Of a stretch of DNA of 20,866 nt, positions 5,732 through 17,099 are shown piece after piece. A program made the translations under genes and the position numbers. Each line of letters begins with the position of its first letter. Position 1 is the first letter of the stretch. The DNA comes from a virus. Taxonomy: Duplodnaviria > Heunggongvirae > Uroviricota > Caudoviricetes. Below the pieces are notes generated by a model that was not told the DNA's origin, did no database searches, and worked only from the letters and a program-made list of their open reading frames with translations. The stretch is taken from IMG/VR virus record IMGVR_UViG_2534682222_000015, positions 1 to 20,866 of that record; one strand, given 5' to 3'.

Positions 5732-6115
5732 TTAGAAGGGAATTGAATCGTCGTATTCAGGATGATTTTGATGATTGCTACTTTGCTGCTGTTGGCTGTT
5801 TCCTGAGGTTGCAAATCCAATCTTTGCATTCAGTAATTCAAGAGTGATTGATTGACCATTTTGCCCCTGATAAACATCAACCCTGATGTTTTCTCCGGTA
5901 ATTTCCACAATGCCACCTTCAACAAGAACGCTACGGTAGTAATCCGCTTGCGCTCCCGGCTTGGCAAATACAACGGCGCTGTAGTTTGTCCATTCTTTCT
6001 TTTTTGTCTGGCGATCGTAATACTGAACGCCAGCACGGATGTTGAATCCGATATTTTCCCCGGCCTGAAACTCTCTTGCGGGCTTGTTTAGTCTTACAGT
6101 AATCGAATGTGCCAT
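5732..6115 (-). CDS. ssb: Single-stranded DNA-binding protein (phage SSB; acidic C-terminal tip …EYDDSIPF)
   Basis: 127-aa ORF ending in the DD(S/D)IPF tail characteristic of bacterial/phage SSB; directly downstream of erf. Confidence 0.7.
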   Translation of the reverse strand: MAHSITVRLNKPAREFQAGENIGFNIRAGVQYYDRQTKKKEWTNYSAVVFAKPGAQADYYRSVLVEGGIVEITGENIRVDVYQGQNGQSITLELLNAKIGFATSGNSQQQQSSNHQNHPEYDDSIPF

Positions 6116-6720
6116 TAAGCAGCCGCTCCTTCTAATTCATCTCGTCTGATGTTGTAAACGTCCTGCGCTTTGTGCTGCTCCGGTGTGCCTTCGAGCATCT
6201 TCCACGCTTTGGCGAACGCCTGTTTAAGCTCTTCTACGGTGTTTTTCTGCATTGCTGCGTCAGTGAATGCTTTTAGAACCTGTTCAGGTGTAGGTGATGG
6301 TTTTGATTGCTTTGCTGCTGCGTTCTGCTGATGTTTATGCTCGTCTGTATCTGCATCTTTCGCATCATCAATGCCGAACAAACCATTGAGGCAATACTTG
6401 CGCGCATAAGAACTTGTAGCTCCAGTAACTTGTGCAGAATCCATTCCTTTCTTGCTTTCTTCCTCTCGTGCAAGAGCGGTTGCCGTATGACTGTTTTCGC
6501 CATCGGTAATAGTTGCCGTAGCTTTCACGTAATACCGATCACCAATCAACACAACTTCATCGCTGATTGATAAAAACAGGCCATTCAGTAACGGCTTAAC
6601 GCCTTCAAGAATGTCTTCGCAGCTTCTGTATTTATATTTGCCGAATGAGTTGTACTGATTCTTTGGCGCGTTCAGATTCTCCTGAATAGCTGCCAGTCTT
6701 GCGTAAAATTCTTTGCTCAT
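6115..6720 (-). CDS. erf: Erf-family single-strand annealing recombinase (P22 Erf-like); start at MSKEFYARL…
   Basis: Sequence MSKEFYARLAAIQENLNAPKNQYNSFGKYKYRSCEDILEGVKPLL… closely resembles P22 Erf as I recall it; track ORF extends 10 codons upstream to a TTG. Confidence 0.8.
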   Translation of the reverse strand: MSKEFYARLAAIQENLNAPKNQYNSFGKYKYRSCEDILEGVKPLLNGLFLSISDEVVLIGDRYYVKATATITDGENSHTATALAREEESKKGMDSAQVTGATSSYARKYCLNGLFGIDDAKDADTDEHKHQQNAAAKQSKPSPTPEQVLKAFTDAAMQKNTVEELKQAFAKAWKMLEGTPEQHKAQDVYNIRRDELEGAAA

Positions 6721-6821
6721 ATGATTGTTCTCAGAATGGACACGGCCCAAGGAAATAACGCTGATTTAATACTTCGACTCGGGACAAATTAAGGCATACC
6801 CGCATTCCTTCGCGGTCGCCA

Positions 6822-6980
6822 TTATGGCGATACCAGAGAGCTTTCTGCGTGTACATGCGTCTCTGTAACTTGCTCTCCTTCACTGTGGTTGCAAGTGACA
6901 TGAATATCTCCTTCGTTACCGATTAATTCTTTCATCTGACGAATGAATTCTTCGTCTGACCAGTTATCTGTAAAACTCAT
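6822..6980 (-). CDS. Hypothetical small protein (52 aa; MSFTDNWSDEEFIRQM…), possibly Arf-like accessory recombination gene
   Basis: Manual translation; ATGA overlap with kil stop; position between kil and erf as P22 arf. Not in ORF track (<60 aa). Confidence 0.35.
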   Translation of the reverse strand: MSFTDNWSDEEFIRQMKELIGNEGDIHVTCNHSEGEQVTETHVHAESSLVSP

Positions 6981-7129
6981 TTCCTGCGATACCACGGAAG
7001 GTTGATAGCTGATTTCATCGCTTTATTTGCTTCAAGCCACATTTTTGAATCACCAATAAATCTGGCTATTACTGCTTTGTTCTGTGCAGCACGAAGCATC
7101 TGGTGATTGATGGCTATTTCATTGCGCAT
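6977..7129 (-). CDS. kil: Kil-like host-killing (FtsZ-inhibiting) small protein (50 aa)
   Basis: Manual translation MRNEIAINHQMLRAAQNKAVIARFIGDSKMWLEANKAM…; FIGDxKM motif and position immediately downstream of cIII as in lambda. Not in ORF track. Confidence 0.5.
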   Translation of the reverse strand: MRNEIAINHQMLRAAQNKAVIARFIGDSKMWLEANKAMKSAINLPWYRRK

Positions 7130-11512: not shown

Positions 11513-11541
11513 CTTATCACCCAAACGTCTCTTCAGGCCAC
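11513..11541. repeat. Direct repeat copy 2, spanning the cI stop codon and last 7 codons
   Basis: See copy 1. Confidence 0.7.
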
Positions 11542-12164
11542 TGTGACGCAACAACCTTACCAACAACCCGACAGTGCTCATTACACGGCATCATGGGGAA
11601 TTGAGGATTCAATGGCTGGAGAAATATCTGCCCGCTGTCCTTGATCAGTTTCTTAAACGTGAATTCATCGCCACCTAATCTGGCGATACAGAAATCACCA
11701 GGGTCAACCGGTTCATCTGGATCTACAAGAATTAGCATTCCTTCAGGGAAGCTAGGCTTTGAACCAGCAGGAGCCGTCATGGAATGGCCTTCAACCTCAA
11801 GCCAGAATGCATTGTCGCTGGCTTTCTTTGTCGTGCTTACCCATCTCTCTGCATCACGTTCGGTGAATGTGCGAAATTCAGGTGAGAACATACCAGCTTG
11901 TACATGCGAGAAAACCGGGTACTCAAATTTCTGGAATACTGGCCCATTGTCTTCGCCAAAAAGAATAAGCGAAGGAGACACCTTAAGAACCTCAGCAAGC
12001 GTTAACGCATCATCAGCGCTAACTTTTCGCGTGCCAAGCTCATAATTCCCCAGTCGTGAAGGCGCAGCCCAGCCGCAAAGGTTGGCTAACTTTGCTTGGC
12101 TGAGTCCTTTAGCTTCGCGAAGGGACTTTATCCTCTCGCCGATAATTTCATGCATAGTTTTCAT
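11517..12164 (-). CDS. cI: CI-type prophage repressor (N-terminal HTH, C-terminal LexA/S24-like autocleavage domain with GHSM Ser and FKK Lys); non-lambda immunity
   Basis: 215 aa; C-terminal domain resembles P22 C2 (GDSMTAPAG…PEGM.ILVDP…ATFKKL…PLNPQ.P); located divergent from cro across operators. Confidence 0.85.
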
Positions 12165-12918: not shown

Positions 12919-13323
12919 ATGCCAGGACAAACCAAGCAAGTAAACACCGGCATAAAGGCCGGTGACAAGTTCGAAACCGTATATCCATTTATCTTCGTAT
13001 GCACAGATTATCAGTCTTATGACGGCAACGTGCATACCGATGAGCGCTGGATTGGCGGTTGTCACAAAAATTATGAGCCAGCCGATTGTGGTTATGGTGA
13101 TCAGTGTTTTTACACCGCTGATGCTGAAGGAAAGAGAATTCTTGAGGTTCTGGCAGTGGTGGAAATGCCAGGCAACTGGCAGCGCAGAATCATTTATTCG
13201 TGCCACCTCATAGAGCCTGAAGGCAAGGAGAGGAAAGGAAGGAAGGCTTACACAGTCACCGAATCAAGGTTTTTAAAAATGTCTACTGGTTACTTCGCTG
13301 ATTACGAAGTAGAGGAGGCTTAA
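12919..13323 (+). CDS. Hypothetical Cys-rich protein (134 aa) between cII and the replication initiator
   Basis: AGGAG RBS; starts right after cII; 7 Cys residues; track ORF 12712..13323 overlaps cII upstream of this start. Confidence 0.55.
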
Positions 13324-13469
13324 TGACAAAACCACTCAGTCCTTACCAGGACAAAATTCACAAACACATACTACGTGATCGCTTCCTGTCCAGCTTCAAG
13401 CAGCCTGGTCGATTCCGGGCTGAGTTGGAAAAAGTGAAGCTGATGCAGAAGGAGAAAGGTCATGAGTAA
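13323..13469 (+). CDS. Hypothetical small protein (48 aa; [21 protein letters not shown]…)
   Basis: GAGGAGG RBS; TAATG overlap with upstream stop and 8-nt overlap with O-like start. Not in ORF track. Confidence 0.35.
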
Positions 13470-14322
13470 TCTTGCAACCGTAACACATTTAAGGCCTTCA
13501 CAACGGCCTGTGGAGCGTCGTGTGGCAGAAGTTGAAGATGGTTATACCCGTCTTGCAAATGCCCTGTATGAAGAGCTTATCGGCGCAGATTTAACGAAAA
13601 ATCAGAGCAAGGTTGCCCACGCCATATGCCGTAAAACATACGGCTACGGTAAAAAGATGGATCGCATCTCTGATAGTCAGTTAGCTCAAATTACCAGGCT
13701 GCCAAGACAGAAGGTAAACAAGGCCAAGAATGAGCTTATCGCGATGAAGGTTATCCTTCGCGAAGGCCAGCAAATCGGGCCTAACAAGAACATCGAGGAA
13801 TGGCAAATAGAAGGGTGTCACTACTCTGGTGATAATGTCACTGCATTGGTGACAAAAAGTGTCACCAAAACGGTGACAGCGCTGTCACCAAAACAGGGAC
13901 ACACAAAAGAAACTATTACAAAAGAAAAAAGAAATAATAAAAACACTATGTCCGAAAGTGTTCGGACGGAGTGTGAAAAATCACATGACCGTCACGAAGA
14001 AACCGACAAGGCATTCGAGGAAATATTCTGGTGTGCAGGCATGCGGAAAGCCGGGAAGAAAAACGCAGCTTCGGCATTCAGAACACAGTTCAGGGAATGG
14101 CGTAAAACTACCAGGGGTACGGCAAGCGAGTTTGCCACGATGCTGGCAGAAGACATCGCATGCAGGAATGGTAAGCAGTTCGGATTCGACAGGTTGTTAC
14201 CATCGAGCTACCTGAACGGTCAGCGCTGGAACGACGAAAAGCCAGAAACCATTCAACCACAATCCAAACCATCATCCGCAATCACCGTATCGAAAACTGG
14301 CTACGTGTTTTTCGACAGGTGA
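13462..14322 (+). CDS. O: Replication initiator, lambda O-like N-terminal domain (286 aa)
   Basis: …[58 protein letters not shown]…GPNKNIEEW… parallels lambda O N-terminus from memory; contains iterons internally. Confidence 0.8.
13815..13950. repeat. ori: Putative replication origin: GGTGACA / TGTCACC iteron dyads (13828-13841, 13848-13866, 13872-13889) followed by A/T-rich tract (13905-13950), inside the O-like gene
   Basis: Repeated ggtgaca…tgtcacc units seen directly; lambda-type ori organisation (iterons + AT-rich) within the initiator gene. Confidence 0.65.
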
Positions 14323-14325
14323 ACC

Positions 14326-14433
14326 ATGAAATCAAAAATCAAATCGCTACTGGTCGCTGGTTATAACCACGGCTGGTTAAGTATTTCGTTTGTCGATTTC
14401 TGGTTTAAAAATCTCAATCTGAGGGAATCATGA
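14326..14433 (+). CDS. Questionable small ORF (35 aa; MKSKIKSLLVAGYNHGW…) between O-like gene and HNH gene
   Basis: AGGTGA 5 nt upstream of ATG; hydrophobic; low confidence. Confidence 0.2.
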   Translation: MKSKIKSLLVAGYNHGWLSISFVDFWFKNLNLRES

Positions 14434-14924
14434 TGAGCCTTGAAGTTGGAGAATATATACCTGGTTATGAGGGTAAATACTCTGTAACCAAAGACGGTCG
14501 TGTTTATTCACATTTAAGAGGCAGGTTTTTGAATCCATCTCCGGATAACAATGGTTATCTAAGAGTCACTTTGTGTTCCGATGGGATTCAGAAGACGTTA
14601 AAAGTTCATCGTCTTGTAGCTCAATTATTTATCCCAAATCCGTATTGCAAGCCAGAAGTAAATCATATCAACGGCGACAAATCGGATAACGCCATTTGGA
14701 ACTTGGAATGGTGTACCTGCTCAGAGAATTTAAAACATGCTTTTAGCATCGGACTGAAAAGCGCAAAGGGAGTTTTTAATGGTAGGGCAAAACTATCTGA
14801 AACTGATGTGATTGATATCAGGAATTCTGTTGGTATGAAACTAAGCGAACTATCCACTAAATACGGAGTGAGTGAAATGCAAATTTCCACAATCCGCAGA
14901 GGAAACGCATGGAGGCACCTTTGA
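14430..14924 (+). CDS. Free-standing HNH homing endonuclease (NUMOD4-like N-terminus GYEGKYSV…, HNH motif …VNHINGDKSDNAIWNLEW…)
   Basis: 164-aa ORF with the classical HNH_3-type motif; AT-rich; inserted between initiator and helicase genes, overlapping the helicase start by 16 nt. Confidence 0.8.
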   Translation: MMSLEVGEYIPGYEGKYSVTKDGRVYSHLRGRFLNPSPDNNGYLRVTLCSDGIQKTLKVHRLVAQLFIPNPYCKPEVNHINGDKSDNAIWNLEWCTCSENLKHAFSIGLKSAKGVFNGRAKLSETDVIDIRNSVGMKLSELSTKYGVSEMQISTIRRGNAWRHL

Positions 14925-16801
14925 GTCCATCAGAACTTAGCGACCTGCTTTGGGCGCAGGTTGACAGGGTGGCTCCGCACCTGTTGCCAAACGGCAAGAA
15001 AGAGGGGCATGAGTGGGTTGCCGGTAACGTCAACGGTGACAAGGGAAACAGCCTTAAGGTCAACCTTAGCGGCAATAAAAAATGGGCTGATTTCGCTGAG
15101 GGAGACGGCGGTGACATACTTGATTTGTGGATGTCATGTCGTGGAATTAACCTGCATCAGGCTATGCAGGAAGCGAAAGCATTTCTCGGTATCAAGGATG
15201 ACGATCACCATTTCGATGCCAAACGTGAGAAGAAATTCTCCAGACCTGATCGCAAGAAAATCGCCCGCTACGTTACCAGAACAGAATCCCATCTTGAGTA
15301 CCTGCAATCGCGTGGCATATCGCCAGAAGTCGTAAAGCGCTACGAGGTTGTCAGCGGCAAGGTGTGGAATGGAGAGCGGGAACTGGATGCTCTGGTGATT
15401 CCGTACAAACGCGATGGTGAGTTGTTGCAGGTCAAGCGAATCAGCACTGAGCGCCCGGACGGGAAGAAAGTCATTATGGCAGAAGGTGATTGCGAACCTT
15501 GTCTGTTCGGATGGCAGGCTCTGGACGCTGGCGTGAGGGCGGTTGTACTTTGCGAAGGCGAAATTGATTGTATGAGCTATGCGCAATACGGCATCTCGGC
15601 GTTATCCGTGCCGTTTGGTGGCGGGAAAGGCGCTAAGCAGCAGTGGATTGAGTTTGAGTATCACAATCTCGACAGGTTTGAGGAAATATTCATCTCGATG
15701 GACGTTGATGATGTTGGTCGTGAAGCCGCAAGGGAAATCGCAAGCCGACTCGGTGAACATCGTTGCCGTCTTGTTACTCTGCCGTACAAAGACATCAACG
15801 AATGCCTGATGAACGGTGTTACCGAGGATGAAATCTGGCAGTACATCGGCACGGCATCCTACTTCGATCCTGAAGAACTCTACAGTGCGCGAGAGTTTTA
15901 CCAGGACACTATCAACGCTTTCTACGGCAAGCAGCAGTATCTGTTTAATCCACCGTGGGAATCTCTGGCAGATAAATTCCAGTTCCGTGAGGCAGAGTTG
16001 ACGTTGGTCAATGGTGTGAACGGTCACGGAAAAACGGAGGTTGTCGGGCATATGGCACTTGAGGCAATGCGTCAGGGTGTGAAGACGTGCATCGCGTCAC
16101 TTGAGCTGAAGCCTGGTATTCTCCTTAAGCGCCTTACCCGTCAGGCGACGTGCTGCAAGATTCCGCCAGTGCTGGAAATTGACTCTGCATTTAAATTTTA
16201 TGACGAAAGACTTTGGGTGTTTGGCCTGACCGGAACGGCGAAAGCCGACAGGCTGATCGAAATATTCGACTACGCTCGCCGCCGATACGGCATCCAGTTA
16301 TTCATCATCGACAGCCTGATGAAATGCGGCATAGGTGACGATGACTATAACGGGCAGAAAGCATTTGTTGACTCGATTTGTGACTTCAAAAACAAAACAA
16401 ACTCCCACGTCATTCTCGTTACTCACTCCAGAAAAGGAGACAGCGAAGAAAAACCAACCGGGAAAATGGACGTAAAAGGCTCTGGAGCGATAACAGACCT
16501 GACAGACAACCTTTTTATCATCTGGCGTAACAAGGCTCGCGAGAGAGCGTTACAGAGAGTTCAGAGTGGTGAAAGGATGTCAGAGAAGGACGAACAGCTA
16601 CTGGCATCTCCGGCATCTGTTTTGATGCTTGAAAAGCAACGTAACGGCGAAGGTTGGGAAGGTGGTGTCCCGTTGTTCCTTGACGAGCAATCGCACCAGT
16701 TCCTGCAACTTGAATCAGGATCGCCATATAGCTACATCGCCAATATGCCGAAATCGGAATATGACGAGGCGTGGCGACAGGAAAACGTGACGGAGTATTA
16801 A
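14909..16801 (+). CDS. Fused primase (Toprim) - DnaB/RecA-type helicase (630 aa)
   Basis: Toprim-like acidic motifs (…VLCEGEIDCMS…, …SMDVDDVG…) in N-terminal half; Walker A GVNGHGKTE and Walker B LFIIDSL in C-terminal half. Confidence 0.75.
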   Translation: MEAPLSPSELSDLLWAQVDRVAPHLLPNGKKEGHEWVAGNVNGDKGNSLKVNLSGNKKWADFAEGDGGDILDLWMSCRGINLHQAMQEAKAFLGIKDDDHHFDAKREKKFSRPDRKKIARYVTRTESHLEYLQSRGISPEVVKRYEVVSGKVWNGERELDALVIPYKRDGELLQVKRISTERPDGKKVIMAEGDCEPCLFGWQALDAGVRAVVLCEGEIDCMSYAQYGISALSVPFGGGKGAKQQWIEFEYHNLDRFEEIFISMDVDDVGREAAREIASRLGEHRCRLVTLPYKDINECLMNGVTEDEIWQYIGTASYFDPEELYSAREFYQDTINAFYGKQQYLFNPPWESLADKFQFREAELTLVNGVNGHGKTEVVGHMALEAMRQGVKTCIASLELKPGILLKRLTRQATCCKIPPVLEIDSAFKFYDERLWVFGLTGTAKADRLIEIFDYARRRYGIQLFIIDSLMKCGIGDDDYNGQKAFVDSICDFKNKTNSHVILVTHSRKGDSEEKPTGKMDVKGSGAITDLTDNLFIIWRNKARERALQRVQSGERMSEKDEQLLASPASVLMLEKQRNGEGWEGGVPLFLDEQSHQFLQLESGSPYSYIANMPKSEYDEAWRQENVTEY

Positions 16802-16886: not shown

Positions 16887-17099
16887 ATGGACACCGTTAA
16901 CGGAATGTGTTCAGACGCACCGCGTGCCAAAAAATGTAAATGCGGAAAATCACCGACAATATTCAACATGGAGAACGTGTGCCAAATCTACTGCGCTAAC
17001 CACGCCGCTGTGGCGGCCGCGAATTATCGCAGTGCGGTAACGGAGTGGAATAACCTGAAATCTGTTAGAGAGGGAAGTCATGAAAAAACTAACCTTTGA
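16887..17099 (+). CDS. Hypothetical small Cys-containing protein (70 aa)
   Basis: GAGGGGG RBS; first ORF after terminator, precedes ninB. Confidence 0.4.
   Translation: MDTVNGMCSDAPRAKKCKCGKSPTIFNMENVCQIYCANHAAVAAANYRSAVTEWNNLKSVREGSHEKTNL

Follow-up and report, generated by a model that had tools for sequence, protein, structure and literature searches.

Introduction

In phage lambda the replication origin lies inside the gene of the initiator protein O, which binds the origin iterons (Tsurimoto and Matsubara 1981, as cited in PMC8022706), and lambda then borrows the host helicase DnaB by means of a second phage protein, P. Other lambdoid phages, such as P22 (genes 18 and 12) and HK97 (gp54 and gp55), combine an O-type initiator with a phage-encoded helicase that replaces P; this helicase is of the DnaB type and has no primase domain. 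In this work we describe the replication module at positions 13462-16801 of a 20,866-nucleotide stretch of viral DNA (IMG/VR record IMGVR_UViG_2534682222_000015, positions 1 to 20,866; hereafter the window). Here, too, an O-type initiator is paired with a phage protein in the place of P, in this case a predicted primase-helicase of 630 amino acids (aa) that resembles T7 gp4 and Twinkle. The window is part of a lambdoid phage or prophage of Escherichia coli or Shigella, and its closest overall relatives are Sf101 and mEp043, at 97.5-98% identity.

Modules of this type are already known and are not new. The GenBank record of phage ES18 (AY736146, 2005) describes gp59 as 'similar to lambda gpO', marks a 'rep_origin similar to lambda ori' and calls gp61 a 'putative primase/helicase; similar to phage T7 gene 4'; our statements on ES18 rest on this annotation. 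The note to ES18 gene 59 (L002, 1086-1934) reads 'inhibition of DNA replication; similar to phage lambda gpO', where 'inhibition' is almost certainly a slip for 'initiation'. The module has also been described for P22-like typing phages (PMC10307801), the work of Mohammed et al. is among those that already record its type, and the Eru5 type, a helix-turn-helix (HTH) protein plus a primase, was defined on phage Stx2a_F403 by Fagerlund et al. 2022 (PMC8951638). In Shiga toxin (Stx) phages the type of replication module has been linked to lysogen stability and to Shiga-toxin output (PMC8044961, PMC8951638). The module will not surprise a phage specialist, and what we regard as mildly new is the clade-specific C-terminal tail of the initiator, the loss of a zinc site throughout the primase-helicase family and a rare homing-endonuclease insertion.

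The replication module of the window

We consider it likely that a lambdoid (pro)phage has its early-right replication module here, one of the known kind that joins an O-type initiator to a primase-helicase, and that this module works in the steps proposed below. The module belongs to the early-right operon and has cI (11517-12164, minus strand), cro and cII upstream of it. It consists of four tightly packed plus-strand genes, with a fifth small gene adjoining upstream:

13462-14322, plus strand: initiator, 286 aa, with a lambda-O-type N-terminal domain, an origin-encoded linker and a putative partner-specific C-terminal domain.
14326-14433, plus strand: 35-aa open reading frame (ORF), homologue of ES18 gp60 (phrog_21848, E 4e-26); its stop overlaps the next start codon (ATGA).
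14430-14924, plus strand: HNH endonuclease gene, 164 aa, with the Pfam domains NUMOD4 and HNH_3.
14909-16801, plus strand: predicted primase-helicase, 630 aa, T7 gp4/Twinkle-like by Pfam and by PDB sequence and fold matches (phrog_239, 'DNA primase/helicase', E 5e-171).

A preliminary description of the window, made from its letters, gave a two-gene account of this span that missed the 35-aa ORF and the HNH gene. Three of its other statements are supported by the results below, namely that the N-terminus of the initiator is like that of lambda O, that the partner in the place of P is a 630-aa fusion of a Toprim primase and a helicase, and that the diverged C-terminus of the initiator would form a distinct interface, for which the domain swaps and the co-occurrence with the partner gene speak. 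No homologue of lambda P or of a DnaB-type helicase was found anywhere in the window, and an Rfam scan of the window found no RNA family.

The nearest relatives keep the same gene order. ES18 genes 59-60-61 encode the initiator, the 35-aa ORF and the primase-helicase as in the window, and all three products are homologous to those of the window; the C-terminal domain of the initiator is 92% and the primase-helicase 93% identical, whereas the N-terminal domain is that of lambda and the iterons are of the ATCCCTC type. The viable phages Sf101 and mEp043 carry the whole module at 98-99% identity and SEN22 carries the same module; like ES18, all three are without the HNH insertion of the window. 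The Eru5 phages (Stx2a_F403, 24B and Min27) share the C-terminal domain at 95% and the primase-helicase at 97-98% identity, both being at 97% when Stx2a_F403 is compared with the window. Their initiator, however, has an HTH_36 N-terminal domain with GGGGCAGGAGCTGCCC-type repeats, whereas that of the window has a Phage_rep_O domain, which places the window outside Eru5; the Eru5 primase-helicase also differs by a large in-frame insert, described further on.

The 35-aa ORF encodes MKSKIKSLLVAGYNHGWLSISFVDFWFKNLNLRES and is retained in ES18, Sf101 and 24B. Its DNA is 84% identical to that of 24B, with many changes at third codon positions. Among the sampled loci with a primase-helicase of 59% identity or more, most have an ORF of 35-37 aa at the matching place. 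The product could be a small coupling or loading factor.

The C-terminal domain of the initiator

The comparisons that follow give good support to the view that the diverged C-terminus is the partner-specific part of the initiator. Two of its features are used below:

13972-14247, plus strand: helical core of the C-terminal domain, initiator aa 171-262, 92-95% identical in ES18 and 24B despite their other N-terminal domains.
14281-14319, plus strand: extreme C-terminal tail, the last 13 residues, a candidate docking peptide for the primase-helicase that covaries with the helicase clade.

This domain is unrelated to its counterpart in lambda. The best local alignment to the C-terminal half of lambda O has 12/43 identical residues (28%, score 36), a profile of the helical core gives no match to lambda O, and Pfam reports nothing for the domain at E-values up to 10. 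It is also of another family than the C-terminal domains of the P22 and HK97 initiators. Our alignment of the domain is shallow, because nearly all the proteins that the word-index search gave were partial ones with 60% identity or more.

In related phages the same domains are found in other combinations, given here as N-terminal domain and iterons, then C-terminal domain, then partner (percentages are identities to the protein compared):

Window: TGTCACC-type N-terminal domain and iterons; window-type C-terminal domain; primase-helicase.
ES18 gp59: lambda's own N-terminal domain (94%) with ATCCCTC iterons; window-type C-terminal domain (92%); primase-helicase (93%).
Stx phage 24B 'O': unrelated HTH_36 N-terminal domain with GGGGCAGGAGCTGCCC-type repeats; window-type C-terminal domain (95%); primase-helicase (98%).
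PhiR12_1: the window's N-terminal domain (100%) with the same iterons; lambda's C-terminal domain (100%); lambda P (97%).
Proteus phage V3: window-type N-terminal domain (72%) with the same iteron type; HK97-type C-terminal domain; DnaB-type helicase.

In every hybrid that we compared the N- and C-terminal modules are joined at a shared AT-rich tract of the origin, and the C-terminal modules diverge immediately past it. The fusion of the window's N-terminal domain and iterons to a lambda C-terminal domain, followed by a lambda-type P, occurs in the Escherichia phages PhiR12_1 to PhiR12_5 (L006, PV340549-54). Our literature search found no paper on these phages, and the hybrids may be natural or laboratory recombinants.

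The domain is also inherited together with its partner. It is encoded by 80 IMG/VR loci, and in all of those with room downstream (79/79) the adjacent gene is the primase-helicase, with P or a DnaB-type helicase in none. A more diverse sample comprised 32 loci in which a primase-helicase homologue (30-98% identity) is immediately preceded by a sizeable ORF. The core of the domain (~70 aa, profile E up to 5e-23) is present in 19 of the 32, compared with 0/4 control initiators and 0/48 other ORFs. The N-terminal domains vary far more freely: 27 initiators upstream of primase-helicase homologues were scanned and at least three Pfam domains were found at this end (HTH_36, DUF1376 and Phage_rep_O).

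The tail of the initiator follows the helicase as well. A motif (V/I)x(V/I)(S/G)xxG(Y/L)V(F/Y) is found in 6/6 sampled loci with a primase-helicase at least 71% identical to that of the window, including two that lack the helical core, and the 60% and 40% helicase clades have initiator tail types of their own. Because the class of tail covaries with the helicase clade, we propose that the tail is a docking peptide, that is, that the last 13 residues of the initiator would dock the primase-helicase.

The initiator N-terminal domain and the origin

The N-terminal half of the initiator and the origin inside its gene have the following parts:

13519-13803, plus strand: Phage_rep_O winged-helix domain, initiator aa 20-114 (Pfam, E 1.1e-37).
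13816-13834, 13836-13854, 13860-13878 and 13883-13901, no strand: four 19-bp dyad iterons TGTCACC-N5-GGTGACA, in the middle of the initiator gene.
13902-13950, no strand: A-rich, AT-rich tract (~20% G+C, strongly A-skewed), the presumed DNA-unwinding element.

The N-terminus also matches the NCBIfam model phage_O_Nterm (E 1.6e-30), and initiator aa 1-150 are 49-50% identical to lambda O. For the N-terminal domain the identity is 50% to lambda O, 100% to the O protein of PhiR12_1 and 72% to that of Proteus phage V3. A sequence search of the PDB with the initiator returned nothing meaningful.

The iterons are real and beyond chance. A search for TGTCAC-N7-GTGACA with at most two mismatches finds four clustered matches and one stray match, where 0.71 are expected in the whole window, and five or more were found in 0/100 shuffles. 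The conserved unit is TGTCACC-AAAAC-GGTGACA, and the start-to-start spacing is 20, 24 and 23 bp. The annotated lambda iterons, also four 19-bp dyads, have the identical 20/24/23-bp spacing and the identical AAAAC centre, and a stretch CAAAACAGGG..ACACAAAAGA.ACTATTACAAAAGAAAAAAGAAA is nearly identical between the window and the lambda origin. Proteus phage V3, which has a DnaB-type helicase, shares the iteron type of the window, with four copies of TGTCACC-N5-GTGACA at the same 20/24/23 spacing.

As the copy number, the spacing, the AAAAC spacer and the AT-rich tract are common to both, the origin is best described as lambda-type with a changed half-site. Judged by these sequence features it is homologous to ori-lambda and only the half-site is altered, from ATCCCTC to TGTCACC. 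The preliminary description had called the module 'non-lambda', which is overstated, and had assigned the iterons to a different family, which holds for the half-site and fails for the origin as a whole. It was right that GGTGACA/TGTCACC repeats are present. The array runs from 13816 to 13901 instead of from 13828 to 13889, and the register that it gave, GGTGACA-N-TGTCACC, joins half-sites of neighbouring iterons. We dropped this register, since TGTCACC-N5-GGTGACA in four copies gives the exact spacing of lambda both here and in Proteus phage V3.

The primase-helicase

Three domains can be distinguished in the 630-aa protein:

14981-15193, plus strand: N-terminal ribbon-like domain, aa 25-95, without the four zinc-binding cysteines (the NCBIfam dnaG model aligns to aa 30-147).
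15545-15808, plus strand: predicted Toprim catalytic core, aa 213-300, with E216/E218/D220, D265/D267 and D295.
15926-16708, plus strand: predicted SF4 (DnaB/gp4-type) helicase domain, aa 340-600, with Walker A GVNGHGKT (K375), Walker B D468, H506/K509, G524 and the candidate arginine finger R578.

Domain searches with Pfam match Toprim_2 (aa 213-300, E 3e-12) and AAA_25 (aa 361-511), with DnaB_C below the threshold, and aa 195-543 align with T7 gp4 (E 4e-23) and Twinkle among PDB sequences. An AlphaFold2 model built on 82 homologues has a predicted local distance difference test (pLDDT) score of 94.4 and a predicted template modelling (pTM) score of 0.83. A fold search with this model gives T7 gp4 as the best PDB match (E 6e-27, template modelling score up to 0.73 on the target), followed by Twinkle, DnaB and Aquifex DnaG. 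The family is large, with 852 cluster representatives at 50% identity and E up to 1e-30. Conservation was scored on the alignment of the 82 homologues, which are 34-59% identical: K375, D468, H506, K509 and G524 are invariant, R578 is found in 79/82, and the acidic Toprim residues E216, E218, D220, D265, D267 and D295 are each retained in 74-81/82. By sequence and model the protein is thus a T7 gp4/Twinkle-like bifunctional primase-helicase with its catalytic motifs intact. It shares with T7 gp4 and Twinkle, its best matches in sequence and in fold, the catalytic motifs and the order of ribbon, Toprim RNA-polymerase domain and SF4 helicase, but is only ~20% identical to them. It further differs from them in that it is apparently recruited by an origin-binding initiator. 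Lambdoid phages have no polymerase of their own, and the primase-helicase of the window would thus work in a polymerase-less phage.

The ribbon is the other difference. The N-terminal zinc domain is needed for template-directed priming in T7 gp4 and in DnaG, yet the zinc site is missing here, so that the primase function is not assured. The protein has one cysteine in aa 1-100, no column of aa 1-110 in the alignment has more than 34% cysteine, and Pfam at E-values up to 10 reports nothing in aa 1-205, zinc-finger models included. These observations would suit a replicative helicase whose primase part is inactive or structural, as in the Twinkle of animals, and which would be independent of DnaB while relying on the host DnaG. 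P22 gene 12 offers a precedent, being DnaB-independent but DnaG-dependent according to the title of Wickner 1984, as cited in PMC8022706. We consider this alternative unlikely. The Toprim residues are retained, as said above, and the cysteine-free N-terminal domain, with beta strands at 30-68 in the AlphaFold2 model, is as conserved as the catalytic cores, which indicates selection for an active primase. Moreover, the DnaB-type N-terminal domain, the docking place of DnaG, appears to be missing, and the fold matches gp4 and Twinkle.

Two kinds of insertion are found in homologues of this gene. In 24B, Min27 and Stx2a_F403 the primase-helicase has 968 aa, because 342 aa are inserted in frame into the Walker A P-loop (GHGK|ACPL...YVATHN|TEVV). 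The 24B gene (vB_EcoP_24B, L003, 1996-4902) carries the GenBank name 'P', and two IMG/VR loci (L010 and L032) likewise have the insert. From its sequence the insert resembles an intein that carries a LAGLIDADG-type endonuclease (GLLETDGYV); the first residue of this intein would be Ala instead of Cys. In the IMG/VR prophage L034 an IS3-family insertion sequence (~5781-7030) has entered the gene at its Toprim DxD motif, breaking the frame and leaving this copy defective. We had taken this 1.25-kb insertion for a second intein and dropped the idea, as its translation shows the frame-breaking insertion sequence.

Proposed mechanism and host factors

We propose that the module works as follows. 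Once the repressor is inactivated, the operon would be transcribed and the winged-helix N-terminal domain of the initiator would bind the four iterons inside its own gene, a step that we propose because of the homology with lambda O; the adjacent A-rich tract would then open. The C-terminal domain, probably through its last 13 residues, would recruit the gp4-like hexameric helicase of the phage, where lambda recruits the P-DnaB complex instead. The helicase would encircle the opened single-stranded DNA and unwind it, its built-in Toprim primase would make primers, and the host DNA polymerase III would extend them. The 35-aa protein would be co-translated between the initiator and its partner. 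In this copy the HNH gene has entered the 5′ end of the primase-helicase gene and would leave that gene active.

Replication of this kind, for which the preliminary description had predicted independence of DnaB and DnaG, is likely to be independent of DnaB and DnaC, because the module encodes a complete SF4 helicase under strong purifying selection at the position that is held by P in lambda or by a DnaB-type helicase in P22 and HK97. Towards independence of DnaG we lean only slightly, since the zinc site is missing although the catalytic centre is conserved.

It has to be asked whether the primase-helicase takes part in initiation at all. It might instead have an accessory role, say in replication that is late or depends on recombination, with initiation left to host DnaB recruited in some other way. 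Nothing that we found speaks for this directly, although 34/314 lambdoid phages encode an O homologue only, with no helicase or loader (PMC12315714), and an O-type initiator is thus apparently workable with no phage-encoded partner. We regard such an accessory role as quite improbable. The C-terminal domain and the primase-helicase are strictly co-inherited, the class of the initiator tail tracks the helicase clade, and the primase-helicase gene sits exactly where other lambdoid phages have P or a DnaB-like helicase.

Several points weigh against the mechanism that we favour. The core of the C-terminal domain is missing from 13 of the 32 diverse loci, which means that other routes exist for recruiting this helicase family. 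An AlphaFold2 model of the whole initiator, built on a 16-row alignment, has a pLDDT of 50.8, too poor to define an interface; it suggests a winged helix, a disordered linker (aa 114-177), three helices and a beta tail, and was excluded from the fold search. The zinc ligands are missing from the N-terminal ribbon throughout the family, and we found no experimental work on this family in the literature that we searched.

A wider reading, which we put forward tentatively, is that the C-terminal ~130 aa of the initiator, and especially the last 13, are a portable adaptor through which a zinc-free gp4-like primase-helicase may be used with any origin-binding domain, be it Phage_rep_O, HTH_36, DUF1376 or another. 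Together with the 35-aa protein this would make a system of two or three proteins that initiates replication at a defined origin and passes it on to the host DNA polymerase III without DnaA, DnaB, DnaC or DnaG.

The natural domain swaps are a ready genetic system for mapping the interface between initiator and helicase, and near-isogenic pairs exist, e.g. mEp043 or Sf101 and PhiR12_1. They can also serve the question of how a zinc-less T7-type helicase-primase works with a host polymerase. For the curators of phage genomes the names 'origin-binding initiator (O-type N-domain, primase-helicase-type C-domain)' and 'gp4-like primase-helicase' fit these genes better than the 'O' and 'P' of the 24B and Min27 records, which should be avoided.

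The HNH homing endonuclease insertion

The product of the HNH gene matches NUMOD4 (E 2e-11), HNH_3 (E 2e-9) and phrog_59 (E 7e-57). In Sf101 and ES18 the 35-aa ORF closes with an ATGA whose ATG is the start codon of the primase-helicase (MTPSELS...); in the window this start codon is taken over by the HNH gene. The element is a net insertion of ~491 bp at the 5′ end of the primase-helicase gene, and is missing at exactly this point in Sf101 and ES18 (the empty junction in Sf101 is GAGGGAATCATGACGCCAAGTGAACTT). A new ribosome-binding site (AGAGGA) and, 5 nt after it, a new ATG at 14909 are both provided by the 3′ end of the HNH gene, which gives a primase-helicase that begins MEAPLSPSELS...; compared with Sf101 this product has MEAPLS for MT as its first residues, plus 8 substitutions.

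The element is rare. Among the 292 complete E. coli genomes in which the module junction is found, 5 have the element; the IMG/VR loci have it in 5/79 cases and the records of our phage collection in none. The carriers differ in their flanking haplotypes. Exactly this arrangement with the HNH gene is already annotated by RefSeq for five E. coli genomes. We also looked for a co-conversion tract beside the insertion and found no clustering, the nucleotide differences being spread along the gene. Presence or absence at one precise site, rarity, varied haplotypes and HNH homology together make the pattern of a free-standing homing endonuclease, and by its sequence the HNH gene is one, standing outside the replication mechanism. 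It has the NUMOD4 and HNH_3 architecture of the free-standing phage HNH endonucleases of I-HmuI type and is similarly polymorphic at one precise site beside an essential replication gene, but this product, predicted from sequence, is less than 50% identical to any phage homologue of that type.

That the window is a decaying prophage remnant, with its primase-helicase gene disabled by this insertion, is highly improbable: although the insertion takes away the original start codon and the context of its ribosome-binding site, and although the gene is broken in the related locus L034, every ORF of the window is intact, the inserted element itself supplies the AGAGGA before the new ATG, the product departs from that of Sf101 only as described, and the same arrangement recurs in the five E. 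coli genomes and five IMG/VR loci with several flanking haplotypes.

Neighbouring genes

The small gene that adjoins the module upstream is the following:

13323-13469, plus strand: DUF2740 gene, 48 aa (Pfam DUF2740, E 9e-29); its stop overlaps the start of the initiator gene.

The same position is filled in Sf101, ES18 (gp58) and HK97 (gp53), and we treat this gene as context for the module, its membership of the module being unproven. RefSeq records and PHROG 1913 name the protein 'tail protein'. This name is doubtful, since the gene always lies in the early region, directly upstream of the initiator gene; it looks like a propagated misannotation, and is another name to avoid.

Between cII and the DUF2740 gene is a 134-aa gene (12919-13323, plus strand; phrog_30464, E 3e-95, with no function assigned). 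Sf101 and ES18 have no gene at the corresponding position, and its DNA has no near match in a phage collection of 50,697 records. It may be a moron that was inserted just upstream of the replication genes. Downstream, between the primase-helicase/ninA region and ninB, the window has a 70-aa cysteine-rich ORF (16887-17099, plus strand; phrog_6308), and at the matching position the 24B record annotates a Lar-like restriction-alleviation gene.

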